Source: Psammoneis japonica
Taxonomy: Eukaryota
Direction: 5' to 3'
NCBI GenBank assembly: GCA_008632985.1
Contig: QPGO01000303.1
Span: 1-64,000, forward strand
DNA length: 64,000 nucleotides
The notes under the pieces are model-generated. The model ran no database searches, was not told the origin of the DNA, and saw only the letters and a list, made by a program, of their open reading frames with translations. Every line of letters starts with the position of its first letter. The stretch's first letter is position 1. The position numbers and the translations under genes are program-made. Positions 15,241 through 49,317 of the stretch are shown here, in pieces.

Positions 15241-15294
15241 CATATAAACAGGCCATGACGATGTTCACCGGGCGGCAGCATTGGCATTTCGCAT

Positions 15295-15551: not shown

Positions 15552-15573
15552 CTCCCTCATTCGATGAGATGGG

Positions 15574-19755: not shown

Positions 19756-21156
19756 TCATTCTTGATCTGATGCGTCTTGTACGCCAACATTTGCCACAGA
19801 GGCAGTCAGGTCTGATTCGGCCTTGTCCTTGACGGTGGAGCAGTCCTTGGTAAGGTGAGCGGACCAATGCTCGTGGTTCTTGCACCATTTGAATGTTTTA
19901 CCCTCAACCGTCTTGGTGTGCGGTTGTCCGTCTTTAGGAGCTGCGTTGCGCCAGGCATGTTTTCCGTAGAAGAGGCATTTCTTGCATCCGTTGGATAGGA
20001 TCTTGAACCTCTGGCGCCTGTTGTTATTGTTGGAACCCGATTCTTTCGTTTTGTTGCCCTTGGTGGAGCTCTGAGTGGTCTTGTTGCTGTTGCCAGTAGA
20101 GCGTGGAGCATTGCGAGCTTTGGTGTCATGAAGGGTCTTGACTTCGGCTTGTGGAGCTACGATGGTCTCTTGCTCTTTGGTTGGTGCCATCCACTTTTCA
20201 GATTCAATTAGGATCTTGCACTTGTTTTCAGCCTTGAGCATGAGAGCATGTGCATCGAGATCTGATCCATCTTCACAGTCGCTCTTGTGCTTCTTGATGG
20301 ACTCGATGAATTCTGAGTCGGCGCACGTGAGGCAAGCCTTGAACACGTTGTTCAGCAGATCGGAACCAGTGTGGCCGCTAGTGGCAAGTTTCTTTTCCAA
20401 AGATTTGACGTGGTTGTTGAAAGTCTTGATGTTTTGACCGTCAACTGCAGCCATGCAAGCGTCTAGATTGCCCATTTGGTCACGGATTGCCGAGACAGCA
20501 GCCCTTGTGTCGACTTGAGCCTTTGACAGAAGTGCCTTGAGGTGGGCTGCACCGCATTCTTCGTCTCCAACAGTGCACTCAGCCTTTTCTTCCGTTGCCA
20601 TGATGGTCTTGGAGGGCTCGTCTGGGGTGCTCTGGAGACATGCGAGGAGTTGGCAGTCATTCTGCGTGTTGCGTTGCGCCAGATTGAGGCATGCAGCGGA
20701 TGCCGTGCGAATCTGCTCAGCTGAGATTTGTCCACACTCGGTGAGCATGTCCTTGTTCTCGGCTGGCAAAGCAGGAGCTGCGCCATGGTTGATGTCGATC
20801 GTGAGAATGTCGTTCCAACCATTGGTTTTAGAACGGACCGCGAGTTTTTCTAGGAAGACTGGGATGTTGGGCGATTCAAGACTGAACTGGGTGTCCAACG
20901 GCTTGGTCGCGTCTGCGAAAACGAGCGCGTCACCTTTCTTGGTGCAGTCCAAAACGTCTGCACGGGCCAGCGCTGGTGACTTGGCGAAAGGTCCTGGAGC
21001 AGCTGCTGCTGGTGGTGCAGGCATGTTGTTCACAATCGGCTGGACAGCCGCCTGGACAGCTTGTGCGATGGCGTTAGCGAGCGCGTCAGCATCCGCCACA
21101 ATGAGGTCTTGAAGTTCCTGAGCACGTCTTTGTGCTCCTCTTGTTAAACGGCGCAT
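19756..21156 (-). CDS. gag: Copia gag, strongly TpA-mutated
   Basis: 466-aa ORF just inside the 5' LTR with a WCKNH..W..H...C knuckle; only one Tyr remains. Confidence 0.85.
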   Translation of the reverse strand: MRRLTRGAQRRAQELQDLIVADADALANAIAQAVQAAVQPIVNNMPAPPAAAAPGPFAKSPALARADVLDCTKKGDALVFADATKPLDTQFSLESPNIPVFLEKLAVRSKTNGWNDILTIDINHGAAPALPAENKDMLTECGQISAEQIRTASAACLNLAQRNTQNDCQLLACLQSTPDEPSKTIMATEEKAECTVGDEECGAAHLKALLSKAQVDTRAAVSAIRDQMGNLDACMAAVDGQNIKTFNNHVKSLEKKLATSGHTGSDLLNNVFKACLTCADSEFIESIKKHKSDCEDGSDLDAHALMLKAENKCKILIESEKWMAPTKEQETIVAPQAEVKTLHDTKARNAPRSTGNSNKTTQSSTKGNKTKESGSNNNNRRQRFKILSNGCKKCLFYGKHAWRNAAPKDGQPHTKTVEGKTFKWCKNHEHWSAHLTKDCSTVKDKAESDLTASVANVGVQDASDQE

Positions 21157-21217
21157 CTTGTTGGTTCGGAGAGAACGTTGCTGGTTCGATTAAGAACACT
21201 TTGTCGCAGAGGAAGCG

Positions 21218-21471
21218 TGTGAGCTAATAGTTTAATTAGAACTAAGTTGACAAGTAGCCTTGTGATGAACACAGATGAACTAATTGTGATTGCTTTGAAT
21301 TTCGAAAAGGTGAGAAGACGAACGTCTCAATAAGTGTTTTCCGATAAGTGTTTGAGATGTCTTCAACAATTTGGGGGCCGTACGTGTAAACAATTTGGGG
21401 CCATAGAAATCGAATATTGATAATCGGATGTCGTAGATGTCGCGAGGCATAAATAGACGTCAATAGTCACA
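21218..21471 (-). repeat. 5' LTR of copia element (254 bp)
   Basis: TGTGAGCTAAT...GTCACA followed by TSD CGCAT. Confidence 0.95.
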
Positions 21472-28954: not shown

Positions 28955-28999
28955 CGTCGAAGGGAGCGTTTGGCTTCAGATCCTGAAGATTTTTGTAAT

Positions 29000-30190
29000 T
29001 GCGCGTGGCGCGTGTTTTGTGCGACATGGCAGCCCGCTCTGGCCTGCGGTCAAAGCCGTTTTCAATCCAAGCAAGGGTCAAAAGGCATTGCTCAAATGGC
29101 GTTGGCAGCTGTCCACAAAGTTCGTGCATTGGCTCTTCATGATCCAGCCAGCACATTGCATGGACAAACTCATTGTGACATCATGTGTCGCCAGTCACAG
29201 ACATCCGATTGATTCCAACAACATGCTTCGCCTTCAACAGGGTGTCAACATGTCAGGTTCATCTGACCCAGTGGCAGGTGGCTCGCTCTTTTTGTCCTCA
29301 CACAAATTCATCAAGCAAACAGTGTGCTCCATCAGATCAATCTGCTTGTCAACTGGTGAGGCGGACTGGCTGGGTGGTCTTTTGTCGCTTTGCTTGGGGT
29401 GTTCATTCATGCCGACATTGTCCTCGACGGTTGCACTGCAATCATGCCACTTGCACCTCCTCCTTGAGACTGCCTCCACAATCTTGTCCTCCAATGATTT
29501 TTGGTGCCATAGCATCTTCAAGTCATCAGCTGCCTGAACATGGCTCAGCACCACAGCGCGCTGATCATCGCCACGACGTCAGCCTTCTTTGGTGTGACCA
29601 TTGCCAACACAAATCTTCTTGTGAACAAATTGATGTGGAATCATGTGAGTGCACTTGCAGCACTTCAATGCCAGGTCATGTGCCTTCTTCTTGATGACAG
29701 CCAGGTGGAAATGATGCCAAGAAGCTGCATTCTTGGCCTTGCACTTGGGGCAATTGACAGGGCTTTGCTCGCAGCAGGTTGAGACCCTTGACTGCGTTTG
29801 TCAAAAATCTCTTTGCTTGTGTCACCCAATGTCTGCTTGCCACTGGGGTGATCAACACAACAGTCAAACTTGGATTGCTTCAGCTTGCCGAAGATCTGCT
29901 TTCTCACACCTTCCCTCACCACTGGCATTTGGGCACACGAGCCTTGAATGTCACCGAGACTCCCAAACGCTTCAGAGATTTTCTTGCAGGAAGCCTGCCA
30001 CAAACGCATTTGTGAGATGACATGTTGCCACTCCCAAAAAGCAGGGGATGAACTCCAACCCATTAGTGCTTTCCGTCATCGACAACAACTGCCAGCACAG
30101 GCAACAGGCTCTTCACGATGCTGTCGCTGTTGAACAGCACACAAATGCACAAATTGTGGGGGACAATCTGGAAAGACGCTGACTCCGTCA
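29000..30190. other. Isolated 1.2-kb TpA-depleted island (probable decayed insertion)
   Basis: Only two TA seen between 28997 and 30192; TG/CA-rich and flanked by normal-composition DNA. Confidence 0.65.
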
Positions 30191-30777: not shown

Positions 30778-31971
30778 CTAACCCCTCATATAAGGAACAA
30801 TGTGCTTTGAAGCAAATGAGCGAACGATTTCGTACTGTTCACTTTCGTCAACCATATCTAACAGGTCGAGTTCGTTCGCAACGTCTCTGTCAGCTGGTGG
30901 TGCAAATAGACTCAACGCACTGGCCATGCTCATTTGAGCACCTTCACCCCCATCAGCAGCGCCTTGCTTGTTTTGCTGTATTCGACCACCACTTCCTGAG
31001 GAAGAGCCAGTATCAGTTCCAGGTGTTGAATGCTGGTCTACCCCATCTGATCGTGAACGCTTTGAATCATGGTCCTTCGAGTGGTTATCATCACGATCAA
31101 ATTCCCTTCGCGCCCTCTTGTTCTTGACGACATCATCCAAAACCGCCTGAAATGGTTGCCGATCAGCAAAGGTGGTCGGGAGGGTGTCTCTAACTGAAGT
31201 GTCGTAAAGGCTATCAAGAAGATATTTTGCAGCCGCTGTGGCTTCTCCACCATCAAGACAGAGCTTATATAGAGCCATCTTTAAATCATCCTCACCTCTT
31301 GCAAACCAAAAGAACGTCCACTTCTGGTTTAAATCTGTCAACACGGAAACAACGGCATGGTTGAGATTTAAATAAGACGCTGCAAAATGTTCACCAATCG
31401 TCTTTGGAGTGTGGTCCTTTTCTCGCAAGTTCTCGGGTGTCTTCAGCTCAAGTAGAGCTTCAATGTTGTTCCGAATTGCTGCGTTGCGAACGTGTTCTAT
31501 TTTTGCGATTACAACATCCGTAGTTCCACTTATTTTTCGGCTCTCCGTCAATTCCCTGAGTAGTTCTACCGTTAACAGCTTCCTGTTTGACTGGGCATCC
31601 GCCAAATCATAACGAGCTGGTATCTGTAGCATATTCTTGAGGTAAGACATATATGCTGTTCGATTTTCCATACAATCTTCGTAACCTGTCTGCCACGAAA
31701 ACCCATCGATGTGCTGCGAAAGAGCAGGTTTATTTGACCAAGAGGCCCCTTTCACAGGCAAAACAAGCATGTCCATCAGGTCATTCTGTGCTTCATACGT
31801 TGCATCTGAAAGCACAATTGTTTTCTTTTTCCTTAAATAATCTTCCGCCATAAGCTCAAGACCGGCCTTCGCCGTTTCAGAAAATTGCGGCGGTTGCAGC
31901 AGCTGCTGCTGCTGCTGCTGCTGCTGCTGTTTGAAGTGATTGAGGAGCGTCTTGCCGAGTATCACGGTCAT
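30778..31971 (-). CDS. Crinkler-like protein with PD-(D/E)XK nuclease-type domain; present start codon lies in the gypsy LTR
   Basis: ISGTTDVVI...LLELK and VLTDLNQKWTFFWF motifs resemble CRN C-terminal REase domains; polyQ from a CAG run at about 31897-31929. Confidence 0.6.
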   Translation of the reverse strand: MTVILGKTLLNHFKQQQQQQQQQLLQPPQFSETAKAGLELMAEDYLRKKKTIVLSDATYEAQNDLMDMLVLPVKGASWSNKPALSQHIDGFSWQTGYEDCMENRTAYMSYLKNMLQIPARYDLADAQSNRKLLTVELLRELTESRKISGTTDVVIAKIEHVRNAAIRNNIEALLELKTPENLREKDHTPKTIGEHFAASYLNLNHAVVSVLTDLNQKWTFFWFARGEDDLKMALYKLCLDGGEATAAAKYLLDSLYDTSVRDTLPTTFADRQPFQAVLDDVVKNKRARREFDRDDNHSKDHDSKRSRSDGVDQHSTPGTDTGSSSGSGGRIQQNKQGAADGGEGAQMSMASALSLFAPPADRDVANELDLLDMVDESEQYEIVRSFASKHIVPYMRG

Positions 31972-32243
31972 CTATATTCATTCGTATATTCATTCGTGGG
32001 TGTCAGCCTGGTGTCAAAAGTGTCAAAAGGATGTCAACGATGACACTTTCTAGAAACCTCTTCTCCTTTCTCGATACATCTCGATGCCTCTCGAAAGATT
32101 GTTTCTTTATATTTCTACGCGGTTTCTTAGTATTAATTCTACGTGATTTCGGAGTAGCCGAATCTCTTTCATTTCTTCTCACAACATTAGCAACAGTCAA
32201 CTTTACAACACTACTTTGTGCTATTACTTGGCGCCACTTGGCA
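31953..32243 (+). repeat. 5' LTR of gypsy element (TpA-retaining copy)
   Basis: Colinear with 36565-36855; 15 substitutions, no indel. Confidence 0.95.
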
Positions 32244-32316
32244 TAGTAAATTTACTCCCAAACACTTATTCATCTCTCTTGAGATATATCTACCGATCAT
32301 ATTGTCCTGACCAGAC

Positions 32317-35300
32317 ATGTCAGCAGAAAACTGCCCATTCGAACTCAAGCGTCCTGACCGCTCTGAGGAAGAGCGACGCAAAGACCAACTCGTGTCTTTT
32401 GAAAGCCCCATTGATCCTGACGATCCAGATGGGCTTAAAACTACGATCGAGGTACGCAAGTTAGCTTCAACTGAACCGGAAGATGTTCTTACCTTCTGGT
32501 CAAACTTCGATGAACTTGTCAACGATCTCGGCACGGCTGAAGGACAGCCACGTTTCCGGCTCGTGACCAGACTTATGACCGGAACACCAAAAGACGACTG
32601 GGAAATCGTCGTAAACGAGTGCGAAAACCGCGACCAAGTTACATTCGACACTTGTCGTGAAGAATTTCCACTCCAATGCGTGGACAGAGAAATTGCCCTT
32701 GACACTGAGGAATGGCTTCAAAGCCTTGAGAAACCCAGGAACCAAACTGTCAAGTCATTTGTTAATGACATCCGTCGCTTTAATGAGTTGATTGATGTCA
32801 TGCCTGCGCCAACCGAAGATGACGCCGAAAGAGTTCTGTCATTCACGGAAGCGGAGTTGTCCGTGATCCTTCGAAAATGTGGACCAAGATCATGGGCCGA
32901 AACTCAGACTGAAGCCCGTCTTCGCAACTTAAACTTGAACGACCAAGCTCAATGCTACGAGACTCTCCGACGTATGGAACAACGTGGTGACAAAGGGTCT
33001 GCCGACAACAACAGACGCAACAACAATCGGAGTCGACGCAACAACGGTTGAAACACGCATCGCGGCCAGAATGACGACCAAAATCGCGACACCAGGAACA
33101 GGAACCAAAACAATCATGAACAAACATGTCCAATCCATGGCGTTGTACATCCGAACGGTCAAGAGTGCAATGTCATCCGTCGTGAACGTGAAAATTATGA
33201 GCGGAACCGCGCAAATCGGAACGCGCTGAATCAACAAAACAACTCTCGAAACGAGCCGACACACCGCTGTCCTACACGGAGCCGCACACGGAACGTCGAA
33301 AACAACAATGTGGACTCCAAAGCCAGTCGTTCCGCTTCTAACGATGTCGACAGCGTCGCGTCAGATGATGTCAACGACATTTTTGAAGACGTCACGTCTC
33401 TTCCAGACGATTCCATTGAATCCGAAGTAGAAGACAATCTCACCACGGAAGCGCGTGTCCAGATGATTGATGCTCATTCTGGAATGCACAAGTTCCGTGT
33501 TGCTTTACTCGATGCCGGCGCAAATCGCAATTTTGTGAAGCGCTCAGCCCTTCGCGGGATTCCTCACAAAATCCGTAAATGTGACGTTCCCGTTAAAGGC
33601 CGTTACAGTGCCGTTGATCTACACGAGATTGCGACGCTGACATTGAAGTTCCCAGACTTCGCATCGTCCAAGAAGGTTTCCGTCGATGCTCATGTGGAAG
33701 ACAAAGCCGCAGGAAAACACGACATTATCATCGGAAGAAAAACCGCCACAGAAATGGGACTCGTTTTTGATTTTCGACATCAAACAATCACGTGGGACGA
33801 TGTCACCCTATCCATGCGATCCAAGGGCTCTTTCGACCAAGTCGAAGTTAATGCAATTCATCCCGGCGATGCTGAATTACCCAAGTTCTTCCAGAATGCC
33901 GTCAACCGTCAGGTTCGAGGTATGACGAGCAATGCGTGCGACAAGCACAATTGTCGCGACATGGTTCTATGCTGCAAACACCTTGACAACGATCAACAGC
34001 ACCAACTCATCAAACTCTTCGGACGATGCCCGCAATCATTCGATGGTGCACTTGGAGCTGCACCCGGTAAACCCGTCCATTTGACCCTGAAACCAGGATC
34101 GCGTCCACACTGTGCGAAAGCTCACACCATTCCGCAAGCGTCACATCCCATGGCTCGCAAAGAAGTGGATGAATTGGAAAAAATCGATGTCATTACGCGC
34201 AAACTTCACTCTCCTTGGGGCGCATCCTGTCTTTTCCGATCGAAGAAAAGCGGTGGCATCCGTTTCTTATCCGATTTACGGAAACTCAACGAGTGTCTCG
34301 AACGGCATCCACATCCACTGCCTGTTGTCGACGACGTGGCATGGAAAATGAACGGCTTTACCTGTGCGACATGTTTGGACCTCAACCGAGGCTACTGTCA
34401 CTTCGTGCTTGACGACGAGTCGAAAAAACTCTGCGGCATCATCCTGCCGTGGGGCAAGCATTGCCACAACCGCCTGCCGCAAGGAATCAAACCGGCAAGC
34501 GATGTTTTTCAAGCTTACATGACAGATGTTTTTCATGACATGGAAGACATCATAGTCTACATCGACAATGTCATCCTCTTTACCAAGAACAACTTCAACC
34601 ATCACTGTCAACGACTCGAACTCGTCTTGCAACGGCTCCTCGCGAACAATCTTCACGCACATGTCGAAGAATCCTATCTCGCCGCCAAGACCGTCGACTG
34701 CTCAGGCCACACCATGACTGCAAAAGGCACTCAGCCTCAGAAAAAGAAAATCCTACCCTCACTTTTTCGCTTTGCTCGCCCTCAAAACCGTCGACAATTA
34801 CGTGGTTTCATCGGGTTCGTGAATTGTTGCAAGAAATTGTGGCACCGACGCAGCCACACTCTTACGCCCTTAACTGCGCTGTCATCAGACAAAGTCAAAT
34901 TCAAGTGGACTGACGTCCACACGGAAGCTTTCAATCAGATGAAAAAAATTGTGGCGCGCGAAATCCTCCTCCGATTCCCCGACTTCTCTCAACCTTTCAA
35001 GATCTATCCGGATGCGAGTGATCATCAACTTGGTGCAGTGATCACTCAAGATTTTGACGATGGCGAATGGCCAATTGCGTTCTACAGCCGAAAATTATCT
35101 CAAGCACAACGAAACTGCACGACAATGGAAAAAGAGCCACTGTCGCTCGTGGAAACGACCGAAAATTTCAAAAGCATCCTTTTTGGTCATCGATGCTACC
35201 TGTTTGCCGATCACAAAAATCTTGCATTTGACAAATTCAAGTCAGAACGCGTCAAACGCTGGCGTTTACTTCTCGAGGAGTGCGATTACTCTTTCGAGTA

Positions 35301-36543
35301 CCCACCAGGCCACAAGAATGTCGTGGCTGATTTTTTGAGTCGCCATCCTGTTGTCCAAGTCGATCAAAGCGATTACGAGGAAATGACTTCGTTGGAAATC
35401 GATCCTTCGACATTCCCCGTTACTTTCGACATTATCGCCGACCATCAGAAAAAAGATTCTGCTCTTCAGCAACGACTCGACAAGTCCGAATCCCACTCAG
35501 CCGAACTGTTCAACGGAAAACAGATTGTCCTTTACAAGAACAAGATTGTCCTCCCTCCAACGCTTTTTCCTGCAGTTCTACGGTGGCACCATGAAACTCT
35601 CTGCCACCCTGGTGCTAATCGCACCTGCCAAACTTTGGCTTCACATTTTTACATTCGCGACATGCAGACGAAAGTCCGCACTTTTGTCCGCAAGTGCCGC
35701 ACGTGTTCCAAATCCAAGCGCACTGCGGCAAACTGTGGCGAATTACCTCTTCCAGATGCCACTTGTAAACCTTGGCAGGCAACTCAAGTCGATCTTTTCG
35801 GTCCCTGGACGCATGCCGACAAAAATGGTGTCGATCGCAAAATCAGAGCCGTTTCAATTGTTGATGTCGCAACCCGTTGGGTCGAACTCGCGAACTGTGA
35901 GTTCAAAACGTCCGAAGACATTTCACTTGTCGTCGATCGCGAGTGGTTTTGTCGCTGTCCGCGACCAGAAATTGTCATTTATGACAACGGTTCCGAATTC
36001 ACTTCCGAGTTTACAGATCTCCTCTACAGTTATGGTGTTAAACCGAAACCCACAACAATCAAGAATCCTCAAGCCAACGCGTTCGTTGAACGCATTCATC
36101 AAGTGACAGCCGATTCTCTCCGTGCGATGGATCTCCCTTCTCGCGATCATGATGAAGACACAATTCATGGAATTTTGCAATCCGTTGCATGGGCCTTGCG
36201 CAGTGCCTGCCATGCTGCCCTTGTGTCGTCTCCCGGACAAATTGTCTTCGGTCGAGACATGGTCATTTCTGCTGCTTGTCTTGCGAACTGGAAAATGATT
36301 GATGCCCGTCGCAAGCGCGATGTCCTGCGCAATGATCTCCGCGAAAACGCAAAACGTCTCACTTGCGACTACAACATCGGCAATCAAGTCTTCGTTGTGA
36401 CCAAAGACATCCAACGCAAACTCAACACCAAAGATGGTCCTTTCCGCATCGCACGTGTCCACACCAATGGAACCGTTGCCATCCAGCGCTCGCCTCACGT
36501 CACTGAACGTATCAACATCCGCCGTCTTCACCCTGTCTTCTAA
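32317..36543 (+). pseudogene. Gypsy gag-pol, single frame with one TGA at 33049-33051, inactivated by substitutions
   Basis: ORFs 32317-33051 and 33310-36543 share a frame. Motifs LLDAGA, DLRKLN, LPQG, YIDN (for YIDD), DASD, EKE, DHKNL, HPG, VDLFGP, DNGSEF, NAFVER and GPF. Confidence 0.9.
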
Positions 36544-36564
36544 CGTCTCAATTGGGGAAGCGAG

Positions 36565-36855
36565 TGCCGAGCATCACGGTCATCTACATTCATTCGTGTG
36601 TTCATTCGTGGGTGTCAGCCTGGTGTCAAAAGTGTCAAAAGGATGTCAACGATGACACTTTCTAGAAACCTCTTCTCCTTTCTCGATGCATCTCGATGCC
36701 TCTCGAAAGATTGTTTCTTTGTGTTTCTACGCGGTTTCTTAGCATTAATTCTACAAGATTTCGGAGCAGCCGAATCTCTTTCATTTCTTCTCACAACATT
36801 GGCAACAGTCAACTTTACAACACTGCTTTGTGCTGTTGCTTGGCGCCACTTGGCA
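36565..36855 (+). repeat. 3' LTR of gypsy element (TpA-mutated copy)
   Basis: 13 positions where the 5' LTR has TA read TG or CA here. Confidence 0.95.
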
Positions 36856-36966
36856 CGTCTGCCTGCCCAGAACGCTCAGCTGATTGAATTCATCCGCCGA
36901 TGTCCCCCCGTGCTCCAGCCATCCTCAAAAGTCAGAGCCATCGATTTGGTCCCAGGGAGTTGTCAT
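36856..36966 (-). pseudogene. Orphaned original N-terminus of the Crinkler-like gene
   Basis: Reads MTTPWDQIDGSDF*GWLEHGGTSADEFNQLSVLGRQT and joins LLNHFKQQQ in frame across the TSD. Confidence 0.7.
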
Positions 36967-37339
36967 GGTTGCCTTCAATTGTTTGTTGTCTCGCCGTGAT
37001 GCATTGACTCTTGTTGGCAGCTGTGTGTTGCACTCCTCCCCATGCATCACGCCTCCATGCGGCTCTCTGCTGACGTGTGCTGATGCTGCACGGTTTTGGC
37101 GGAACAGTGTGGGTGCGCACGAAGGAACACACAGAACTGCACAGAGTTTTGCGCGTTCGACAGTGATCAACGTTGCTGCAGACAACTCCCACTCAGGGTT
37201 TCGAACCCCTGGCCTCCTGCCCAATGGTTGCGATGAACCACTCCGCTGTGAATTCACAGTGTGGCATGCATGCAGACAAAAGGTCATTTTTGTCACGCCC
37301 TTTGTGACATTTAAAGGCTGCAACACGTCGCCGTGACAC

Positions 37340-39298
37340 GTTGACTCTTGTCAGCAGCTGCACATTGCACTGTCAACAATTTCTTGTCGCTTGAGTTTGA
37401 GCCTGCCCACAGCAGTGCTGCAGCCGAAATGGACATTGTGCGCTGGATGTGCAACATGAGGATCTCGCACCCCATGGAGGACATCCACCCAGTGGATGAT
37501 GATGCCACTGGGGCTTGCCGAACAATGAAGCATCACCCCAACCTCATGGCGATGCACACTTCTGTCCAGTGCGGCCATGGTGTTGCACAGACTGGGTGTG
37601 ACTTTGGCGATGCTCCAAACCCTTGCAACTGGGGTGGGGGCTGGTCTCAGAGCCGCCAACAGTTGGCTCAATGTGCTTTCCATGTCCCGAATGTCGTCGA
37701 GATCATGCAGCCTTTTTTTGCTGAAATTTGAATTCCCGGCTCCTCCTGCGGAAGATGATGTCTCTTCATTTGCCCAAGCCTTGCCGGACACTCTGAACCC
37801 TGGTGTTTTTCAGGATGGTCTTCGCATCTCACCGACCTTTGAACACCACGTCAATGACAACTTGCATGCGGACGTTCGTGATGTCTCACTCCGGACTGTC
37901 TCGGCGAGCGCACTCACCATCTTCATTCTCCAAGGCTTTCCTCATGAAGAAGTTCTGAATGCCTTGAGTTTGGAGAAGCTCAACCTCCTCCTTCACTGGG
38001 TTCACAAGCTCCTTGGGAGGCTGTGCAATGCCAGGAGGTTGACTGTCGGCATGCCAGACTACAAACGCGATGAGCTCCTCACTGTCCTCCTTGATTGGAC
38101 AGACAAAGTCAACCACCTCTTGGGGGAGGCGGCTTCTTCATTGGGGGCCTTGGAGAACCACACCCGACACTGTCCATGGGCCCGTTGTTGGTTTTTTCAG
38201 CTCCAGAACAATCTCCGGGCGGATCTGATTGCCAGGTGCCATGTTGCCCAACGCACATTTGCCAAGTCTGGTCATCGTGACCAAATTCTGGACCAACTTC
38301 CCCAAAAGCTCCTCTGCCGTCTGGAACCTGTTCTTGCAAAAGAAAAAGCCCAGAGCTCGTGTGCAATCTCCGGATTAAAACCACGGTGTCAAAGTCGCTT
38401 TGGTGGTCCTTGCAGTTTGTCCGACGACATGTTGAATCAACTCCCAACCCTTGGGAAGCTGAGATTGGAACGATTGTCCCACGTGATCCCCACTGTCAAG
38501 GGATTGGCGATGCCAGCGGCCTGGGTGGTGGCAGACATTGCCAAGAATTTCAATTTTGGTTTCTCGTGCTTTGGGGACCCGAGATCCAAAGAGGAGTCCA
38601 CTTGCGATCGGACTCTCCGGGCTGTGTTGTGATGAACTCCCTGGAGTTCATCGTTTCAATTTTAGTCCTGGCTGGCATCATTGCTTTCATGGAGTCCATC
38701 GATGAGCCATTGGACCCTGACCTGGTCTCGGCTCTCTTTTCCCAAGCCATCCTGGAGAACCTGGCAGTCAGGATGCGGACCGACAACATTGTTGGCAACG
38801 GGTGGCAGATCAGTTGTGCTACGAGCTCTCTCCAAGGCCAACAGCTGCTTTTAATTTGGTGTGCGCTCCGCACTCGGGCTCATCTTGGCCCCAATTCTGG
38901 AGGCGTGCACTGGTCAGGCGACCAAATGCAATTGGCCGATGACACATCTCGACCGTCTGACATTCACCTGCCTCATTCCGTTCGTGTTGCTCAGCTGTGT
39001 CAGAAGCATCCTTTTCTGAGGACTTGGACCTTTTTCCTCCCGAGTCAAGAGCTGCTGCAACTGCTCCACTCTCATCTGTTCTCCGAACTGCCGCCGGTCC
39101 CTGTCGAGACCCCGCAGCGCTCAGGACAGCTCGCACGAGATGCACCCACTGTTTCAAATTCACCAAGGATGTGAAGTGGAGTGCGGATGATCTGGAGATG
39201 CTCATGGAAAAGCTCCCGGAGCGTCGCTGCCTGACAGAAATTGAAGGCAAATGGCAAGAATTCAAACAACAACTCCTTGCTGCTGTCCAAACAGCAGA
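37340..39298 (+). mobile_element. Degenerate DIRS-like retroelement RT/RNase H
   Basis: Frame-broken motifs DDATGACR..KHHP, FGD...CNW, HHVND (for YVDD), GDASGLGGG, NSLEF and TDN. Confidence 0.6.
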
Positions 39299-42200
39299 TG
39301 AGTCTCCGCTCAGAGACCGTTGCAGGAGCCGAAAGACGTGCAAGTCGGTACAATCGGGCTGCTGTCATCATTCTTGTGAGCCTTGTGGCTCGAAAGCAAA
39401 CTACATCGCGCGCGAACGCGCGGAACTAAAGCACACAAAACTGTGCGCGGCAAACTAAACAGCGCGCGACATTTCGCGCGCACCCAAATCCTGTTCAAAT
39501 CCTGTCACTCCCCAGTTTGCTTGAGGAGCCACAGAAACAGATTCGACTTTGGATGGAATGAAGTTCCAGAACATGAGGGGGCGGAGAAGGTCCCAGATTT
39601 GGGAGTGACCCCAATGCTTGCTGAGAATGTCAGCAGGGTTGCGGGAGCCTTCGATGAAGTGGAACTCAAGGTGGCCAGAGGCAATTGCCTCACGCACACG
39701 GTGGAACGACAGTGCGGTGTGTCGCTTGTGTAACTTGGAGTGCGGGATGGTGGCACTGTCTACAACTGACTTGTTGTCACCAAACATGTGACTGACATTG
39801 CAGATCGGGACGCCAAGGTGGCGCAGGGTGATGCGCAGGTCAACAATCTGCTCGACACAAGTCCTTGCGGCAACAAATTCAGACCCGCAGGTTGCAGTCT
39901 CCATGGTGGCTTGCTTCTTAGAGAACCAATCAGCCGGGAATTTGTTGAGGAAGTGGAGCATTCCCATGACAGAGCGTCCGGTGAGCATGCAATGGTGCAA
40001 GTTTGCATCGACGTAATGGGTGGCAGTGACGAACTTGCCAAGGGGCGGTGGAGCGTCCTTCGGGATCATCTCTTCTGCTTCGCCGCACACGGAATGCATC
40101 CATTCACAGGCCGGAGCAGGGAGATCCGAGTGGTCGGGCTCTTCCGTGCGAACGCGGAGAGCGCCGTGTCGCATCTTGGAGAGGTGCCCACAGACGCGTT
40201 TGGCACGATCCAAGTGGCCTTGACGGGGCACAGCTCGGAAGCTAGAGAGTGACATGACGGCCGTGGCAATGTCAATTCGACCAAGGGACACTGCCCATTG
40301 GAGTGAACCAACAAGAGACTGGAACTTGTGAATGCCATCGGGCCCCAGCAGTTTGGAAGTGTCTGGTTCGGGGTGGTCACCCTTCTCCAGAGGTGACAGG
40401 GCGTTGGTGGCAGGTTTCTCCCCAAACAGTCGGGCACAGCTGTCGACCATGCGCTCGATGTACTTGCGCGGAGACAGGCGTGAGGTTCCGTTGGGATCCC
40501 GGGAAAAATCGCAACCCAGATGGAACTCAATGGGTCCCGCACCCTTGAGCTTGAACTTGCACTTTTCCGTGAGAGTGTCGACGAAAGATTGAGGGTCCTT
40601 CACAGCAATGGCAAGGTCATCCACACAAACGGCAATGTGTTCACAGTGGTCGCCGTTCCTGCGCATCCAAATGTCGGGTTCGGCGCGGCAGGGGAAGAAT
40701 CCTTCAGCTCACAGGCAGTCGGCGAAGCGCTCGTGCCAGCGGAGACCAGAGCTGCGCAGTCCACACAGGGCCTTGTGGATGACAAGGATGTGTCCTTCGA
40801 GTTTGCCAAATTCGGGTCCGGCTGCAATGTAGAGCTTCTCCTTGGTGGTGGCTTCAAGGCAGGCATTGCCAATGTCGGTGGCCCATGTCTCCAACTCGTT
40901 GAGTTCGGCCAGGAAAATCATCAGCCGAAGGCCACGGAGGGAGACTGCTCCGGAGTGGACACTGTCGACAGGTGCGTCCGTGAGGTGCCCATCGGCTGCG
41001 AGTCGTGCCTTGTGGTGACCGTCGTGTTTCACGTCGTGCACTGGGTGCACTCAGATCTTCTTGTGTCCTGCAGGAGGAGTGGAAGACTCGAAGGGCCCGC
41101 AGTCATGGAAGACTTTGCATTCCTCGAGTTGGTCCATCTCGAGATTAGTTGCGTCTCCCCATTTGCAGTTGCCATTGCGTTCGTCTAGTGACATGGCGTG
41201 TTTGCAGTTCCGGGGAACTTCGCATCCGCACTTGCAGCGAGGTGCAGTGTGGAAGGAGCAAAGCTTGGCTTGGTTGGCCATGCGAAATGGCTTCTTTTGG
41301 CGCCTCGCGATGGTGCGGAACCGCTTCCAGCCATCAGTGTCGAGAAGTCTGTTCTCTCGTGCATAGATGGTGCAGGTGACGGGGTCATCCTTGGCGATGA
41401 TGGCAAGAGGCTCGGACGTGATCTCCCCACTTTCCCATTCAAGCATGATGTTGTAGCTTGAGCCTTTCCAGGTTGGGTCATGAGGCTTCAGAGGTCCTTC
41501 GTGTGACACGATGCATCGAAATTTCCAAACAGCAGTGTCTTCGTCTTCTTGCTCAATGTGATTCATGATGTCGTTGCAGGCAAGGACTTCCTCACATTCG
41601 TCATTGTTGACAGAGCAGACAAACTCAGTGAGCTCGGGATTGCCGTTCACTTTCCATTCGTGTTCTTCGACGGCCTTGACGATGCGAGCTCTGTGGCATT
41701 GTCCATCCTCTTGTGGCTGCATGAGGAAGGTGCGTCCAATGATGTCTTGCGGATCGAAAACTGGCATCTTGGGTGTCCTGATCTCCCCACCAGGAGAATC
41801 GACGGGGTTGTCGTCATGGCGAGATTCGATGATGGGTTCAGGTGGCTCCCCATCAGGAGGATCAAGACGCAGGTTTCGAACGGCAGGATCGGTGGTGGCG
41901 GAGCGTACGTTGGACCGGTGGAGGATCTTCTGAGTCTCGTCAGAGAGAATCTTGAAGGTCATCTGGTGGCCGACGTGCTCAGCAATGCCAACAAAGCGTC
42001 CACGCAACTCACAGGATTCGGACGGCCAATCGGAGTCATCGAGGTGGAAGTGCACGGGTTCCCACCAGTGAAAGCGAAGCAATGGGCTGATGTCCGGGGT
42101 GGAGCCAGTGAGAGTCTCGAGGGGCGTGCACCAGTGGAGACGTGGGGACGCTGCATGGTTGAGTGTGAAGCACACATGCATGAGCGCCAGCAGCCATGTG

Positions 42201-43075
42201 TGGGCGGGCGAACCAAAACGATCCATGACAGTGTTTGCCATGCACTTCACGGTCTGGTGTCGACGCTCGGCAAAGTTTTGGTGTTGCTGGTGAGGCTCAC
42301 TTTGCCAGCTGGAGATGAAGAGGGCTCGTAGGATCCCGAGCACCTTGTTGCTGATCTCAACTTGAGCACGGTCACCAATGAGTTTGGATGGGGCACCACG
42401 CTCCCGGATCTGATCCTCGAGTGTGTTGACAAACTCTTTGTCCGTCTTGGTGCCGTGGACGTCAGTGACGGTAGACTCGGTGCCAACAAACAGTTGGGCG
42501 CTGGTGCAACCAGAGTCGACGGCCGGGGTGTTGGCACAAACGGTGTCAGTGGCAACAGGCTCGTTGCGGCGGTGCACATTAAGGGTGGGGTTGGGTGATT
42601 TGCAGGCCTTCCTAAGGTGTGTGCCGGTGGGCATGCGGACGTGCTGCGTGGTGCAGTCAAAAGTACGACGGACCGCATCGGCAGGGAGGAAGCCAAAGTG
42701 GGGCCGAAGAGACTCGAAGGGGGGGTCCTTGGGCTGCACAGTGCGCTCCGGGGGCGGAATGTCGTCGTCCTTGGGGTCAATCGCGTGTAGATGACACTCG
42801 TAGAACACGTCATAGTTCGGAATGAGGTGATCATCGATGGCAGACGCTTGATCGGCAGACAAGGAAGCGGACATGATGGTCTCGTTGACAACGACACGAT
42901 GACGGCAGTTGCCGCATTCGTCAAATGGGTTGGCAGTGGGATCGTCCTGCAGGTCAGAGATCGCGTCGCACCACTGGTCATTGTCAGTGACAGTGATCAA
43001 GGATCCCATGTGTCATCACCGGTGAGGATGACATGGGGCAGGGTGTCCCATTCAGCGTCAGTGCAAGGTTGAAGT
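39299..43075 (-). mobile_element. 5'-truncated second Ty1/copia (CoDi) element: integrase-RT-RNaseH plus probable 3' LTR (about 39299-39507)
   Basis: One frame 43009-39455 with two TGA stops. Motifs ATDT, DRAQVE, QNFAER, HKARL, DIGNA, CVDD, YVDAN, GSEF, GDN and ADILSK; PPT GGGGAG precedes TGACAGG at 39507. The left LTR edge is uncertain. Confidence 0.9.
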
Positions 43076-46000
43076 GCCCCTTGTCATCCATTGGGCACCC
43101 AAGACAATCAAAAGAAGGAATGCATCATTCTGAGATTCGGCTGAGTGGTGCAGCAAAGCGATCGGTCATGCAAATGCAGGCAGAGCACCAGCGTGGGCGG
43201 AGCAGGAGTTCTCACTGTGCAACAGAAATGCAGCAGCACAACAGCCCCATTTTAGAATTTCGCTTGATTCCGCAACGCATTCCGCATCACAAGAGCTCCA
43301 GAGATGACACGCCACATTCCGACCACAACACGGAAAGTGAAGCTGTTGCATTCCGTGCCATTGGTTGAGCAAAAGGAATCCACAAACAGAGTGCAGCAAA
43401 AGGAGCAGCAAATGGAATCTAAAACAAATGGCCTCTGTTTGACAAACGAAATGGTGAAACGGAATGTGCAAATTGCGTCTTGGGTGCGGAATGAGCACAT
43501 GCGTTGGAATGTGATGCGGACTTTGACGAGGCTTTTTTCATTTTGCACCGTGTTGTTCACATTCTGTTTTGAGGCCTTTTGCGACGGAGTCATGCACACA
43601 TTCCGTGCGATTCTGTGGATTCTTGTTTCCTGTGGTGTGTCGCAAAAGATTCTCATGCGCAGGAATTCCAAAATGTGATTCTTCTGCACGAGGGACACTG
43701 TCAGTTGCGATTGACATCATGACACAGGGCTTTCATGCTCTGTCTCAACCTCTGGCATCTGTCACTTTTGTCTCAGTTTGGTGCTTGCAGAGGGACAGAC
43801 CAGTGCCATCTTCCTGTGCTGCAGGCACCGAGGATGGAACGTGGGGCTGCGTTCCCCACATGCAAAGATGGCGGGCTGCCCTCAGCTGCTGTCATGACAC
43901 TCATTCTTGCATCATCAAAGCTGTGCATTTCTGAGTGTGGTTTTCTCCATTTGTCTGCAGCAGGCCATGCTGCTGCCGTGCTTGCTGCTGCCTTTCTTCT
44001 GGCTTCTTTGTTGCCAGGCAGTGCATCCACAGCACACACAGCGCCACAAAAGGAGCGAAACGACATCGTTGCTCAAGACAAGGCTTGAAACGCTCACACT
44101 TTTTTGTGGTCCAGCAGGACCTGCTCTGGCACACATGCTGCTTGAAAGTTTGCCACAGCATCTGTCACTTCTCTCTCCCACATTGGCGCTGACCAAGATG
44201 TCTTTGCAGCCACCATCTCTCGACTTGCCAGAGTCTGCATTGACACTCAGCAAACCGCTGGATTGACCAGGACTTTTTGAGATGTGACACAGGTTGATGG
44301 CAGGTTTGTCATGTGTGCTGAGGAAGGCTGGGCAGTCTTGCCAATGGTCTGCCAAGCTCACTCATCACACAAATCTCATCATGACAAGAAATGGCCAGCC
44401 CACCCTTCTTGCACTGAAGAGCATGTTGAGTGAAAAACTTGCATCAGGTGTGCACTCCAGTGGAGACATGTCACAGTTTCTTCTGCAATCTGACATTTGA
44501 CATCTTGTTTCTGGGAGCCATGTGCACCTGACATTGCCCGGCCTGTCAGCTCCTGGGTGGAGGTCCAGCCACCCCACATGTGAGCACCAATGCAGGAACT
44601 GGTGCAGGCTGTGCATCATTTCTGGGACCAATCATGCCAAGTTCCCAGCCCCCCCCCCCAGCCCTGGCATTGTTGTGAGAAACTCATGTGTTGGGTGGCT
44701 TGGGTCACTGGAATGCTGGAAAATGAGTGAGCAGGTGGGTGGAGGCAAGGGGCAAGAGAAAAACACAACAACAGAGGCCAGAATGCATGGAGATGAGGTG
44801 GATGACAAAGAAAGCAGCAGCAACAGAGAGCCTGCTGCAAATGTGCAAAGATTTGCTGAAATGTCAATGAGATGCAAACAGCGGCAAAGGATGCTGCAAA
44901 ATGTCTTCATTGCAAGTCTTTTGTGAGACTCTCCAAGTCATGAAGGAAACTTTGGATGCTGCTGACTGTGCAGCAGCTGCAGCTTCAAAGCTCTTCTCAT
45001 TCAAAGATTTTGGCTTGTCATCAGTGTTTCCAGAGAGCCGCTGATGGTCACTTGTGTGTGGCTTTAACGTGATCCCCTTGGCAGCCAAGGCACCATTTCA
45101 TGCCTCTTCTGTGGATCCCCATGCACCAGGAGTGGCCAGGACTGGAGGTTCAAGAGCCACCAATGCCTCTGGCAACTGAGCTGTGTGACTTGCCAATGCA
45201 GTTTTGACACAGATCAGAAGGAATGAGAATGTGAAGAGATGTCTAGAGAGAAGCCAGCCAAGAGAGCTGCAAGCTCAACTCTTGATTTTTCTTTGGGTGG
45301 GTGATTGTGCAGAGCTGCCCTTGATGTCAGCAGGCCCAAGTCAGCGCCCTTTCTTCTGCTGGGGCAACAGCAAACAGAAAGTCAGAGCAAGTGGCAGCAG
45401 CAAATTGGTTGGTTCTTGGGGGCTCTCAAATCACCATTTGTCTTTCTCCCAAGTGTCTGGCAGTCTTGGGGCAGGGAAGAGTGTTTCTTCCCCGGACACT
45501 GGCAAAGTTCAACTTTTCAATGTGCCAGTCAACACATCTCCAAATTCTTGGAGATGAGTGTGCACAATGTCAGGAGATCAACTGGAGCTCATTTGACCAG
45601 ATGTGCCAACCCATGTGCATTGGGTGTGAGATGGACTTGTGAGCAAGTGGCTGTCCATCACATGCAAGCTGCGCACTGCTGTGCACTGCACACAAACCAG
45701 ACATGCAGCATGCGCGGCTTTAAGCTGTGCTGTGTGCTTGCTGTGAAAGCAGCACAAATGGCACATCACCTGAAGAAAATTGCTCAGATGGCACAGCATG
45801 TGAACCTTCCATTGCAGCAAAGGGGCTGCTGGATGCTGTGATCAACTGTGTGGAGGAGCCCAAGGTTGGGGTGTTGTGGACAAAGTCAGGGAGCAGCACT
45901 GTGGCACAACTCTTGGCCATCACCACCCATGATGTTGCTTCCTCACACAACAAGGCCACAGCCAGCCCTGCTTGAGTTTGTTGCTCTCAGGTGACTCATC

Positions 46001-49000
46001 TTTTTGCTTCTAAAGTTGGTTGGACAATTGGCAGGCCAGCGCTGCTGTGGTTTTGCCAGCCCACTTCCCCCAGCAACAAACATGCCAGGTGAATGGATGG
46101 CCCCCTTCATTGCCCAGCTCTTCATCTTGTGCACATTTGTTGCTCCAATGAAGCAAGGTGGACAAGCCTGCAACAACGCCATTTCCCAGCACCACACAGA
46201 CAAACCTGGCACCACACAGACAAACCTTTTGCATTGCAAGGAGCAGGTTGGGAGTGTTTTCTGATGTGATTCTCACAGAGAGCTCCATGGCCCGACCTGC
46301 TTGTGGTGTGTCTTGGGGGGCAGTGTTGGGCAGTTTGCATGGCTTGTGACTGGACCAATCACTGGCAATTTGCAGCTTGGCATCTGCAAGCAAGAAGGAA
46401 AAACACAGGGGGGCAGGATGCTCACTCTGTGACTTGCAGCAGAGTTGCTTTCAACCATGTGTGCACTTCTTGTGCCTTGCACATGGTTTCCACTCATCAC
46501 CAATGTGGCACCCAGTGCTGACAAGACACACATGAGATGAGCCAATTTCAAGAGAGCCCAACTTGCCATCAAGGCAATCAGGCCATTGTTGCCAGGCAAG
46601 GTGGCTGCTAAAAATTCAACCCCCCCCTGCTTTTCTTCTTTTCCCAGAAGGGCTGCAATTCCACAAGTCCTGAAAGTTGAGCCACTTGCCAATGTTGATT
46701 TGCAAATGCATTGTGGAGTCTTTCATCAGAGCATGGGTGCAACATGCATGCTTCCTGGTGCCCACCCATGGAGGCAAGCTCATCTTCAAATGAGGCACAG
46801 AGCAAACCCAAGCTGTGGCCATTCAAAGATTGGGCAGCTCCCAAGTGGCAGCAGATTTTGCATTTCTTCTTGCCCAATCCCAAACCATTGCATTGAGAGA
46901 TGAAACTTGAAGGTGCAGCAACTCAAGCACAAAAGCAAGAGCCCAGAATTTCCTCACATGCTCAAGGCTGAAGTCACCAATGTGCTCATGTGCTGATGAG
47001 GCAGTTGGCAAAAAATGCACCCCTCCATGTGTGGGGCCGCACCTGCTGGCACCAGCACATGCATTTGTCAACACAAGGCTTGCATGCTTCCACAACAGTC
47101 TTGAAGTGAAGCTCATCATCAAGTCATTGGCAATGCACCCCACTTCAGGTTCAAGAAACAACCAAGCTGGCTGGCCAGTGCCTGAGAGCATGGCTGCCAA
47201 TGACACTGTGAGTTTCCAAGAGACAAGCCTGCAGACAATTTGTTGTTCAAGACAGTGCCCATGAAAGGGAAGGTGCAACCCTGCCCAGGTGCACCAAACT
47301 GCTTCACAGCTGCAATGAAGGTTCTTTTGCCAGAGCAGGGGTTGAAAAAAGAGCCAGAAACATCTTCAAAGGAAGCCAAGCGCCCCCCAGTTTACAAACA
47401 CCAAGTCTCCAGCGACAATGTGCTTGAGCATGTTTCACCACCACAATGCTTTTGGTTGGCAACAAACAAGCCACGACCATTGCAGACAAAAAAGAGAGCT
47501 TTGGGAGTGGGCGCCTCTCCACAAGGCAAAAAGCCTTGACCAACTTTTCTTGGCAGGCACACAGTGTGCATTTCCTTGGCTGTGTGCTTCTTCTGGCTTG
47601 ACTCATTTGTGTCCTGAATGATCATCTCACAAAACACAACCATGCAGGTGTTCCTTCAATGAATTAACTGCAAATGTTTTTGAACAGCGCTGCTCCCCCA
47701 CAGTCTTTTGTTTGCTTTGACTGTGCATGATTTGAAATGCTCTTGTTCAAGGGCTTTGTGGTCATCTGTTGTTTTCTTGACAACGGGCTCAGAGAAACAT
47801 CCCTTGCTGAAAAAAAAGCCTCCATGTCAGCCATTTGAGCTGCAATGCAGAGCATGTCTTTGGTGTTCAGCACATCATGTTGGGGCTCACACCACCAGCA
47901 TTGAATGCCTGGGAAATGCCTCGCTTTTCTGTGGTGTGAGTCAGCACATTTTTGAGGCCAATGGCAGCATCCTGTCTTGAGTGTGCAACATTGAGAGGGT
48001 TTTGTTTGCCCAGTCTGCAAAACAACAAAAATTGACCACCTGATGTCTGCCTTTGCAGCCCTCATGATTGTTCGCACTGGCCATGATTGTTTGTGGCCAT
48101 TGAACCCACCACAAATTGTTGGGGCTGGCCATGGCACAACAGCATCAAATTGCCAGAGCACTGCACCCATGTCACTTGATTTTTTGTTGAGCGCTGCACC
48201 CGTCACTTGATTTTTTGTTCTCAAACACCACGCAAACCTCCCTTGAGCTGGCAAACAACTCACCCAAGCTTTGTGCTGCAGACTCTCTCTCACAAACACA
48301 TTTTGCCAAGCAACTCAAGCATGGCAGGTGCTGCCACCTCTGCTCCTCAACCAAAACATCATTTGCACGTGCACATTGCCATTTGTCTTGACGGCAGTCT
48401 TGTGCTCATGAGATGCTCCTGCTTCTGGGTGAACGAGACTGTGTGGGCACAATTGGCAAAAGAAGAAAATCTTTTTGACTCAAAGCAGGGGGGGTGTTGT
48501 GCAGCATGAACTTGCTCTTTTGACAGCCTCACACCAGCCAAAGAGCAGAATTTGGAAAAGACAGACTTTCTGTCAGTGTCTCTTGGCGTCTCCGCCAAGT
48601 CAATGATGACAAGCATTGACCTTGATGACGTCTCTGCATTGCAATTTGCAAGAAGTCTTGTTGCAACAGCATCTGCAGAGTCTCTTTCCACACATTTGCC
48701 AGGTGTGGAGACCAGTGTTGTGAGCAGCTCCAGCAGCAAGAAAAGAGCCGTGAGAACAACCATCTGGCTTGCGCAAATCTGACGTTTTGCTTTGACCAAG
48801 TTGGCTGTCATTGTGTTTCATGATCACTTCTTTGGAAAGACCAGCGCAGCTGCACATGACACATGGAGAGAGAGTGCTCCTCAGAGAGCTCAGCAACAAA
48901 GAGGAAAGAAGCGCAGGCTTGAACCCGGCACAGTTGCTTTGCTTTGAGCCACAAAGGAGGGGGGAAAGTTCCCCAGAAAGGAAGTGAACCAAATCAATGC

Positions 49001-49142
49001 TTTGACATGGTCACCCATTTCCCACCATTGTTTCCATTGCTTTACAAAATTAACAAAATTGTTGGCAACAAACCAACACTGTGTGGTGTCTTGTGGTGGT
49101 CTCAAGGTGAGAGTAAAACAAGCTGTGCTCGGTGCTCGACAG
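43076..49142. other. Extremely decayed TpA- and CpG-depleted block running into the assembly gap
   Basis: Roughly a dozen TA in 6 kb, few CG, and no recognisable protein motifs. Confidence 0.75.
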
Positions 49143-49317
49143 NNNNNNNNNNNNNNNNNNNNNNNNNNNNNNNNNNNNNNNNNNNNNNNNNNNNNNNNNN
49201 NNNNNNNNNNNNNNNNNNNNNNNNNNNNNNNNNNNNNNNNNNNNNNNNNNNNNNNNNNNNNNNNNNNNNNNNNNNNNNNNNNNNNNNNNNNNNNNNNNNN
49301 NNNNNNNNNNNNNNNNN
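49143..49317. other. Assembly gap (N run)
   Basis: 175 N characters. Confidence 1.

Follow-up and report, generated by a model that had tools for sequence, protein, structure and literature searches.

Loss of conserved tyrosines in retrotransposons of Psammoneis japonica as a probable trace of post-integration TpA hypermutation

Retrotransposons in a 64,000-nucleotide stretch of the diatom Psammoneis japonica (assembly GCA_008632985.1, contig QPGO01000303.1, positions 1 to 64,000 of the forward strand; hereafter the window) carry cysteine (Cys) or histidine (His) at positions where related proteins conserve tyrosine (Tyr). The elements concerned are a Ty1/copia-type remnant (copia2), a full-length Ty3/gypsy element (gypsy) and a young Ty1/copia element (copia1). 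We interpret the replacements as the protein-level shadow of TpA to TpG/CpA hypermutation occurring after integration, in delimited tracts of transposon-rich, gene-free DNA, and put the probability of this reading at about 85%. A first-pass annotation made from the sequence had pointed out the replacements in copia2 and gypsy and traced them to the loss of an ancestral TA; the observation was confirmed, and the interpretation was supported overall by the analysis described here.

Loss of conserved tyrosines and the underlying codon changes

The relatives of copia2 (39455..43077, minus strand) were all 70 proteins of 1750-2000 residues among 120 listed (1562 matches at E ≤ 1e-10), and those of gypsy (31953..36855, plus strand) were the first 60 of 120 listed (366 matches). 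A column was regarded as conserved when one residue was common to at least 80% of the relatives in the alignment. In copia2, 26 of 30 conserved Tyr columns were changed, to Cys (13), His (10), Phe (2) or Trp (1), while 74 of 571 conserved columns were changed overall (75 including one stop). Every other residue class was changed in 0-20% of its columns, the next most affected being Thr (6/30), and the comparison of Tyr with all other residues (26/30 vs 49/542) gave a Fisher p of 2.8e-21. The same replacement was seen in gypsy, where 14 of 20 conserved Tyr columns were changed (9 Cys, 4 His and 1 Phe) among 60 changed columns of 303 (Tyr 14/20 vs other residues 46/283, Fisher p = 5.5e-7). When the ten closest relatives of gypsy were used at a 90% threshold, 19 of 27 Tyr columns were changed (12 Cys, 6 His and 1 Phe). 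The reported shift to Cys or His needs the qualification that 3 of the 26 Tyr changes of copia2 went to Phe or Trp. The amino acid composition of copia2 (Tyr 0.6%, Cys 3.5%, His 5.6%) lay outside the range of its 70 relatives, which had means of 3.81% Tyr (minimum 2.86), 0.93% Cys (maximum 1.28) and 3.55% His (maximum 4.24).

All of the motifs quoted in the first-pass annotation were present, namely DIGNACLEA, KALCGLRSSG, HCEHIAVCVDD, ETATCGSEF, LRHLGVP, SHMFGDN and PRCKCGCEVPRNC in the minus-strand translation of 39455-43012, and GYCH, GKHCHNRLP, VDCSGH, VNCC, RNCTT, EKEPL, WHHE and RCPRP in the gypsy open reading frame (ORF) 33052-36543. The predicted hit on the catalytic YVDD was also found; the Tyr of the reverse transcriptase (RT) Y-V-D-D box ('AVCVDD'), which 80% or more of the 70 relatives share, is replaced in copia2 by Cys, encoded by TGT at 40625..40627 on the minus strand. 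The replacements do occur at conserved motifs, as had been stated, but the effect is regional and not specific to the motifs.

Cys and His were not natural to these positions among the 70 and 60 relatives, contrary to what the first-pass annotation had named as a refutation of its reading. When each relative was compared with the rest (leave-one-out), Tyr to Cys/His replacement was counted in 35 of 2590 cells in the copia2 family and 13 of 1096 in the gypsy family. Because Tyr persists at these columns in the relatives, TA is ancestral and TG/CA is derived, in agreement with the direction proposed earlier. Of the 35 cells, 11 came from one protein, P0067 (source 'ena'), a full-length relative of 1888 residues in which 11 of 37 conserved Tyr were replaced by Cys (7) or His (4) and the frame was still open. 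Tyr loss is therefore not private to this copy of copia2.

Changed columns were then classified by the single base change leading from a codon of the conserved residue to the observed codon, with the actual neighbouring bases taken into account. Among the 75 changed columns of copia2, 18 were explained by TA>TG, 13 by TA>CA, 12 by CpG>TpG or CpA (including an Arg>TGA stop) and 4 by A:T>G:C in other contexts, while 15 were transversions and 13 needed more than one change. The earlier statement that TA changes explain all of the replacements it listed goes too far as a general rule, given the transversions and the multi-step columns. The codons for Cys and His at conserved Tyr columns of copia2 and gypsy were all TGY or CAY. 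Outside Tyr, the TA-type changes of copia2 matched the expectation from a TA model, with GTA>GCA (Val>Ala) twice, TTA>TCA (Leu>Ser), ATA>ATG (Ile>Met), and first-position A>G, each directly after T, giving Thr>Ala twice, Lys>Glu and Ser>Gly. AA>AG changes numbered 2, against 31 of TA type. Other A/T-rich residues of copia2 were scarcely changed (Asn 0/17, Phe 1/24, Lys 5/34, Ile 4/22), so a general drift from AT to GC is no explanation. TA-type changes made up 24 of 60 in gypsy. The A:T>G:C change is specific to TpA and affects both strands.

Neither A>G nor T>C can convert a sense codon into TAA, TAG or TGA, and frames consequently stay open; the proteins are disabled by missense without new stop codons. 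The assertion that frames are left open was upheld for gypsy and for the mutation type as such, but not for copia2, which has two in-frame TGA codons on the minus strand. The first (41051..41053) lies at residue 654, where the consensus of the relatives is Arg, and fits CGA>TGA by CpG decay; the second (40709..40711) is in a column that is not conserved.

The remnant copia2, delineated by tblastn and RVT_2, covers the integrase, RT and RNase H region of pol, is truncated at its 5' end and is heavily depleted of TA (TA observed/expected ratio (obs/exp) 0.13, GC 0.566, CpG obs/exp 0.8-0.9). Positions 39455-43012 (minus strand) form one frame of 1186 codons containing the two stops. A single tblastn segment aligned residues 723-1850 of the relative P0001 (1859 residues) to 42985-39545 with 65% identity, and a short additional match extended to 43074 or about 43077, giving in total about residues 690-1850 of relatives with about 1860 amino acids. 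These relatives carry PF07727, and copia2 is collinear with their residues 723-1850; rve gave no match at E ≤ 0.001 on the 653-amino-acid piece of copia2. RVT_2 scored 37.4 bits on a 113-amino-acid piece (cut-off 31.6) and 26.2 bits, below the cut-off, on the next piece. No pair of direct repeats that could serve as long terminal repeats (LTRs) was found around copia2, the gag-protease part is missing, and the 5' truncation lies near 43077. copia2 is a fragment, not a whole element.

The young Ty1/copia element copia1 (15295..21455, minus strand; LTRs 15295-15532 and 21218-21455), whose named relatives are from the diatoms Epithemia and Fragilaria, has a mutated tract inside it. Its LTRs differed at 4 of 238 positions, all TA vs TG/CA, and TA obs/exp of the element was 0.53. 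The tract measures about 3.2 kb (roughly 17870..21075, minus strand). In gag (20220-20946), a threshold of 70% among 70 relatives gave 7 conserved Tyr columns, every one of them changed, 5 to Cys, and at a 50% threshold all 12 were changed (7 Cys, 1 His, 4 other); Tyr made up 0.2% of gag residues vs 3.16% in the relatives. In pol, 4 of 17 conserved Tyr columns were changed, where the relatives had Tyr to Cys/His in 7 of 1015 cells. These four were consecutive columns in integrase at 17874-18363, all TAT>CAT (His), and a fifth was found at 19161 at a 60% threshold, whereas all 12 conserved Tyr of RT/RNase H (16140-17802) were kept. The tract has sharp edges, one of which falls within 72 nt between the lost codon at 17874 and the kept codon at 17802, and both LTRs were spared. 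The only in-frame stop of copia1 (19756-19758) separates gag from pol. Pol-only proteins of about 1350-1400 residues make up most of the relatives, and the stop may be the normal gag/pol boundary of the family, not damage.

Timing, extent and sequence context of the TpA changes

The timing relative to integration was read from gypsy, a full-length element with LTRs at 31953-32243 and 36565-36855 that have TG..CA ends. It is flanked by an exact target duplication of 5 bp (CGTCT; 31948-31952 and 36856-36860). The Pfam search detected RVT_1, RNase H, Integrase_H2C2 (zinc finger) and rve in this order; the tblastn match spans 32317-36537, and the ORF 33052-36543 has 1163 codons. Mutation sets in at about 32450 and continues through the 3' end of the element. 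The two LTRs differed at 15 of 291 positions, which comprised 13 TA vs TG (9) or CA (4), one CpG-type transition and one transversion, and the TA was in the 5' LTR in all 13 cases. As the LTRs of one insertion are identical on landing, the 13 TA-type differences arose after integration. The occurrence of mutations in only one LTR also argues against a duplication sensing like that of repeat-induced point mutation (RIP), which would hit both copies. The process need not hit both copies of a repeat.

The LTRs also gave a measure of rate. Of 20 TA sites in the 5' LTR, 13 were lost in the 3' LTR and none was gained, while 1 of 14 CpG sites differed; by a hand estimate, the frequency of change at TA in the mutated LTR was roughly 90-fold that at any other base. 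A duplicated host gene segment in the window (8200-9800 vs 21491-23100) served as a control and contained 145 substitutions, of which 15 were of TA type and 76 were transversions. The TA-type share of differences was 10% in the host duplication and 87% in the gypsy LTRs. The rate of TpA change is far above background and above that of CpG decay. The duplicated host segment, encoding a ShK domain and a 2OG-Fe(II) oxygenase, has copies 13.3 kb apart with 91% identity and a third, more diverged copy at 24128-24835; the two close copies bracket an old TA-free block and copia1, and the spectrum of their differences is ordinary.

Depletion of TA was not confined to the coding parts of the elements. 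A continuous TA-depleted domain extends over 32450..49142, with 0-7 TA per 250-nt bin vs 8.5-19.3 expected from base composition. Its left edge lies inside gypsy, about 200-250 bp past the 5' LTR, and its right edge coincides precisely with a scaffold gap of 175 N (49143-49317) before a LON-domain gene, so the true edge is hidden. In 1-kb bins over 33001-49000, TA obs/exp was 0.00-0.26, and bins outside the depleted blocks mostly had 0.45-0.83, as did most bins of the genes flanking depleted DNA (AAA ATPase, adaptin, LON-domain and 2OG oxygenase); genes on either side of the domain had values of 0.5-0.7. The nearest Atlas cluster of a neighbouring AAA-ATPase gene consists mostly of Bacillariophyta. 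The ratio was 0.41 for the whole window, 0.25 for gypsy, 0.10 for 36544-39454 and 0.02 for 43013-49000. The longest gap free of TA measured 1645 nt, whereas the median distance between TAs in the window was 18 nt. The loss of TA was accompanied by a rise of CA/TG up to 1.8-1.9, with AT, AA and GC ordinary; among the 16 dinucleotides only TA was depleted, plus CG in the old blocks. The oldest block (43078..49142) had TA obs/exp of 0.00-0.05, CpG obs/exp of 0.05-0.56 and CA/TG of 1.6-1.95, and a second TA- and CpG-free old block occupies 10001..15250. The changes are limited to tracts, and the edges of these tracts ignore element boundaries. In gypsy, CpG obs/exp (33001-37000) was 1.08-1.47, higher than in host genes; this excess may be native to the family or a by-product of A>G at CpA and T>C at TpG.

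The summed depth of read contigs was about 100-190 over 37510-39005, about 1500 over gypsy and 50,000-210,000 over copia2. The stretch 37510-39005 was TA-free despite its low depth, which hints, depth not being a copy number, that repetition is not required for mutation. This stretch lies within a 1871-base insert (37361-39231) that is TA-free, has a depth like that of single-copy DNA and matches nothing in Pfam; the same negative result was obtained for ORFs in the TA-free stretch 37529-39171. One contig of sequencing run X1 joined 37360 to 39232, as if other copies of the surrounding repeat were without these 1871 bases. The high-depth repeat on either side of the insert (36762-37509 and 39006-39454) could represent the 3' LTR of the copia2 family.

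The bases flanking TA influenced its loss. With both strands pooled, the gypsy tract retained TAT/ATA at 0.18, TAG/CTA at 0.34, TAC/GTA at 0.44 and TAA/TTA at 0.74 of background, and in the old blocks TAA/TTA alone was appreciably left (0.17). The 124 surviving TAs in mutated regions included 24 in TTAA (5.3 times background) and none in ATAT. In the gypsy LTRs, losses occurred at 8 of 8 purine-TA and 5 of 12 pyrimidine-TA sites (hand one-sided p about 0.01). Tyr>His events were not limited to codons preceded by a purine, so the flanking bases bias the loss of TA but do not strictly determine it.

Other copies in the sequenced sample were consistent with the same direction of change. Contigs of X1 compared with 31900-43100 showed 606 transitions and 81 transversions. 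At the 40 best-supported places, 10 had TA where the window has TG/CA and none had the window retaining TA; six dinucleotides had TG in place of the window's CA or vice versa, 12 differences were of CpG type and 6 were other. Two of these TG/CA swaps fell on conserved Tyr codons (35956 and 40130-40132), where this copy has Cys and others His or the reverse, which is what separate mutations of a single TAY codon should produce.

Candidate agent, alternative explanations and related systems

To our knowledge, no enzyme has been assigned to such TpA-directed A:T>G:C hypermutation of DNA. The agent would be an enzyme, for which a TadA/ADAT2-type adenine deaminase acting on transiently single-stranded DNA is the simplest candidate; the natural tRNA substrate of TadA/ADAT2 has U before the edited A. 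Its targeting would follow silent chromatin rather than sequence duplication. The requirement for T before A, together with same-strand runs in the youngest tract, would fit such a deaminase. The runs were indicated by copia1, where the changed columns were 7 Cys and 1 His in gag and 0 Cys and 5 His in integrase (hand Fisher p about 0.005), and by a 44-nt repeat pair (36991, 37328) with four TG-vs-CA swaps, all in one orientation. This evidence, though thin, points to single events that each affect one strand along hundreds of bases. A strand bias calculated from raw TG/CA counts in copia1 gag had the opposite direction and was replaced by the Tyr-column result. The loss of CpG in the oldest blocks may be a separate, slower process; it would fit deamination of 5-methylcytosine, as diatom transposable elements are CpG-methylated according to the available part of Hoguin et al. 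2023 (PMC9998398).

Several points weigh against the hypermutation reading or narrow what it can claim. Since TA is self-complementary, the sequence cannot separate adenine deamination from thymine modification. The evidence for strand coordination comprises 13 codons and 4 dinucleotides; no region showed clustering when the succession of TG and CA was examined by a runs test (z -1.22 to +1.86), and 11 TG/CA swaps between two inverted arms in the second old block alternate in orientation. In copia1, the old block next to the element adjoins its unmutated side and not the tract, a placement that simple spreading from old tracts fails to explain. The relatives are 62-72% identical for copia2 and 35-54% for gypsy, which leaves only the conserved columns informative about the ancestral sequence. 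In the codon classification, the TA label was preferred when more than one one-step ancestor was possible, and the background for the flanking-base analysis was the non-repeat DNA of the window, a stand-in for ancestral composition. The reads (runs X1-X4) all derive from a single sample, possibly the one used for the assembly; their contigs were compared at 85% likeness, and the X1 places examined singly were 40 of 690, the best-supported ones. TG/CA swaps can also come from CpG, and are clean evidence only where relatives have Tyr.

Among the alternatives, the one that survives best keeps the footprint and changes the agent, invoking error-prone repair synthesis (Pol-eta-like WA>WG) or modification of thymine at TpA, for example to 5-hydroxymethyluracil (5hmU), followed by mispairing, in silent chromatin. 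The palindromic nature of TA gives T>C and A>G chemistry one and the same footprint. The mutation motif of Pol-eta is WA; AA was not depleted in mutated regions (obs/exp 1.06-1.32), and the two AA>AG changes of copia2 beside its 31 TA-type ones do not make up a WA motif. As for thymine modification, 5hmU produced by a dedicated enzyme has been reported to silence transposons in dinoflagellates (available part of PMC11572971), but a base-resolution 5hmU map of Breviolum showed no sequence motif, and no support for a TpA preference of 5hmU was found in the available part of that source (PMC11071213). We consider this alternative improbable.

Retroelements pass through RNA, and mutated copies might have been inserted after ADAR-like A>I editing of double-stranded RNA or after editing of cDNA. 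Editing of the ADAR type gives A>G on both strands, with a 5' G disfavoured. Both LTRs are, however, copied from one template, and the 13 TA-type differences, all in one LTR, rule out RNA or cDNA editing before insertion as their source. In addition, the tracts begin and end within elements and run on through low-copy DNA beyond retroelements, and a complete gypsy with an intact target duplication is mutated only in part. Pre-integration editing is very unlikely to account for the pattern.

An artefact of assembly or base calling, in which modified repeats with TA (and CG) are misread as TG/CA, would explain why TA and CG, both self-complementary, vanish together in the oldest blocks, and the window does contain a scaffold gap and relies on reads of one sample. 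Against it, X1 k-mer contigs with a depth of 28-35 reproduced TA-free stretches of 323, 484 and 268 nt with 0 differences, copies carried TA, TG or CA at the same site, and P0067 shows the same Tyr loss. The conversion is near 100% over kilobases, with a degree varying by element. The same signature also appeared as new mutations in mutation-accumulation lines of Bigelowiella, according to the available text of a preprint. We give such an artefact hardly any weight. That Cys/His are natural to these lineages, or result from relaxed selection with ordinary drift or GC-biased conversion, is scarcely credible; the elements are old enough for other changes, such as the 15 transversions in conserved columns of copia2, but the 70 and 60 relatives keep Tyr, A/T-rich codons lacking TA are spared, AT and AA are not depleted, and the TA-type share of differences is far lower in the host duplication than in the gypsy LTRs.

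The hypermutation reading has a close parallel in the chlorarachniophyte Bigelowiella natans. In mutation-accumulation lines of this alga, an integrated giant-virus region gained 211 new mutations, and the 210 of them that were A>G/T>C all lay at TpA (Mettrop et al., bioRxiv 10.64898/2026.01.13.699255); the available text proposes an ADAT2-like adenine deaminase and reports RT and DDE Pfam domains to be enriched among TpA-depleted genes. As described there, the changes are almost only A>G/T>C at TpA, leading to TpG/CpA, in delimited foreign or silent regions, and the process works on single-copy DNA, leaving clusters poor in TpA and rich in CpA and TpG. The same was found here: nearly only A>G/T>C, a TpA context and delimited regions with host genes normal. 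The two cases differ in that Bigelowiella belongs to Rhizaria and its main targets are viral insertions (giant virus and virophage), that its giant-virus region is mildly depleted (Rho TpA 0.45, compared with 0.00-0.05 here), and that its mutations were measured in real time, while ours are known from the footprint alone. No mention of flanking-base preference, strand runs, LTR asymmetry, Tyr loss or diatoms was found in the available text of that preprint.

RIP resembles the present process in being a dinucleotide-specific transition hypermutation that inactivates transposons, forms tracts and proceeds far faster than background. In Neurospora and other ascomycetes, however, RIP changes C>T at CpA and makes TpA, giving AT-rich DNA full of stops, whereas the present process removes TpA, raises GC (0.57 in copia2) and makes no stops. 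RIP mutates both duplicates, in contrast to the 13:0 asymmetry of the LTRs and the mutation of low-copy DNA; neither C>T at CpA nor mutation of both copies was found. APOBEC3 (G>A in cDNA) and ADAR (A>I in RNA) likewise produce context-dependent, clustered mutation of retroelements as a deaminase-driven host defence, but they act before integration, not after it as here, and the G>A of APOBEC has the opposite direction. CpG decay of methylated transposons is probably present here as a second, slower layer, represented by the 12 CpG-type changes of copia2 and by CpG obs/exp of 0.05-0.36 in the oldest blocks. It cannot remove TpA, and in the young gypsy some 65-70% of the TA sites scored are gone while CpG obs/exp stays at 1.2-1.5.

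In the literature searched, no description of TpA>TpG/CpA hypermutation in diatoms was found. The available part of Maumus et al. 2009 (PMC2806351), on diatom retrotransposons, contained no relevant mention of such mutation, and that of Hoguin et al. 2023, which deals with methylation of diatom transposable elements and a RID-like DNMT4, does not discuss it. As far as these searches show, the sole description of the TpA signature is that of Mettrop et al. 2026, and the present case adds a new lineage and a new target class. Diatom retrotransposons extend the signature to a second major lineage and a major phytoplankton group, with the direction fixed by conserved tyrosines, and ordinary LTR elements, not only viral insertions, are shown to be substrates. 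The flanking-base preference, the edges inside elements, the possible strand runs and the independence from duplication provide handles on the mechanism. Hypermutated copies keep long open frames and are predicted as proteins in public genome and metagenome catalogues, as with P0067, and low domain-model scores can result, such as the 26-37 bits of RVT_2 in copia2. Searching other genomes for polyproteins poor in Tyr and rich in Cys/His is an easy way to screen for the process. A wider proposal is that diatoms and chlorarachniophytes share a dedicated defence, in which a single-stranded-DNA adenine deaminase would act at silent foreign chromatin in same-strand bursts of about 1 kb, preferring purine-TA-pyrimidine and TTAA least, and would erase TpA at about 100 times background; it would be a chemically inverted RIP that kills by missense without stops. 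We regard this proposal as tentative, and would bet against it at modest odds.

Further features of the depleted DNA

An isolated TA-free island of 1.07 kb (28996..30064), with a single TA inside and CpG obs/exp of 0.47, lies between stretches of normal composition and has no similarity to the other blocks. The old blocks had no similarity to each other, and five transposable-element proteins gave no tblastn match in them, leaving 43078-49142 without a recognisable protein. The second old block holds inverted arms at 10183-10578 and 11597-11988 with 82% identity, which differ by 11 TG/CA swaps, 8 CpG-type changes, 22 other transitions and 14 transversions. Further inverted arms were located at 9912-10121 and 12245-12342, together with a 113-nt tandem pair at 9883-10119, and the segment 9883-12342 is possibly a foldback element or a DNA element with long terminal inverted repeats.

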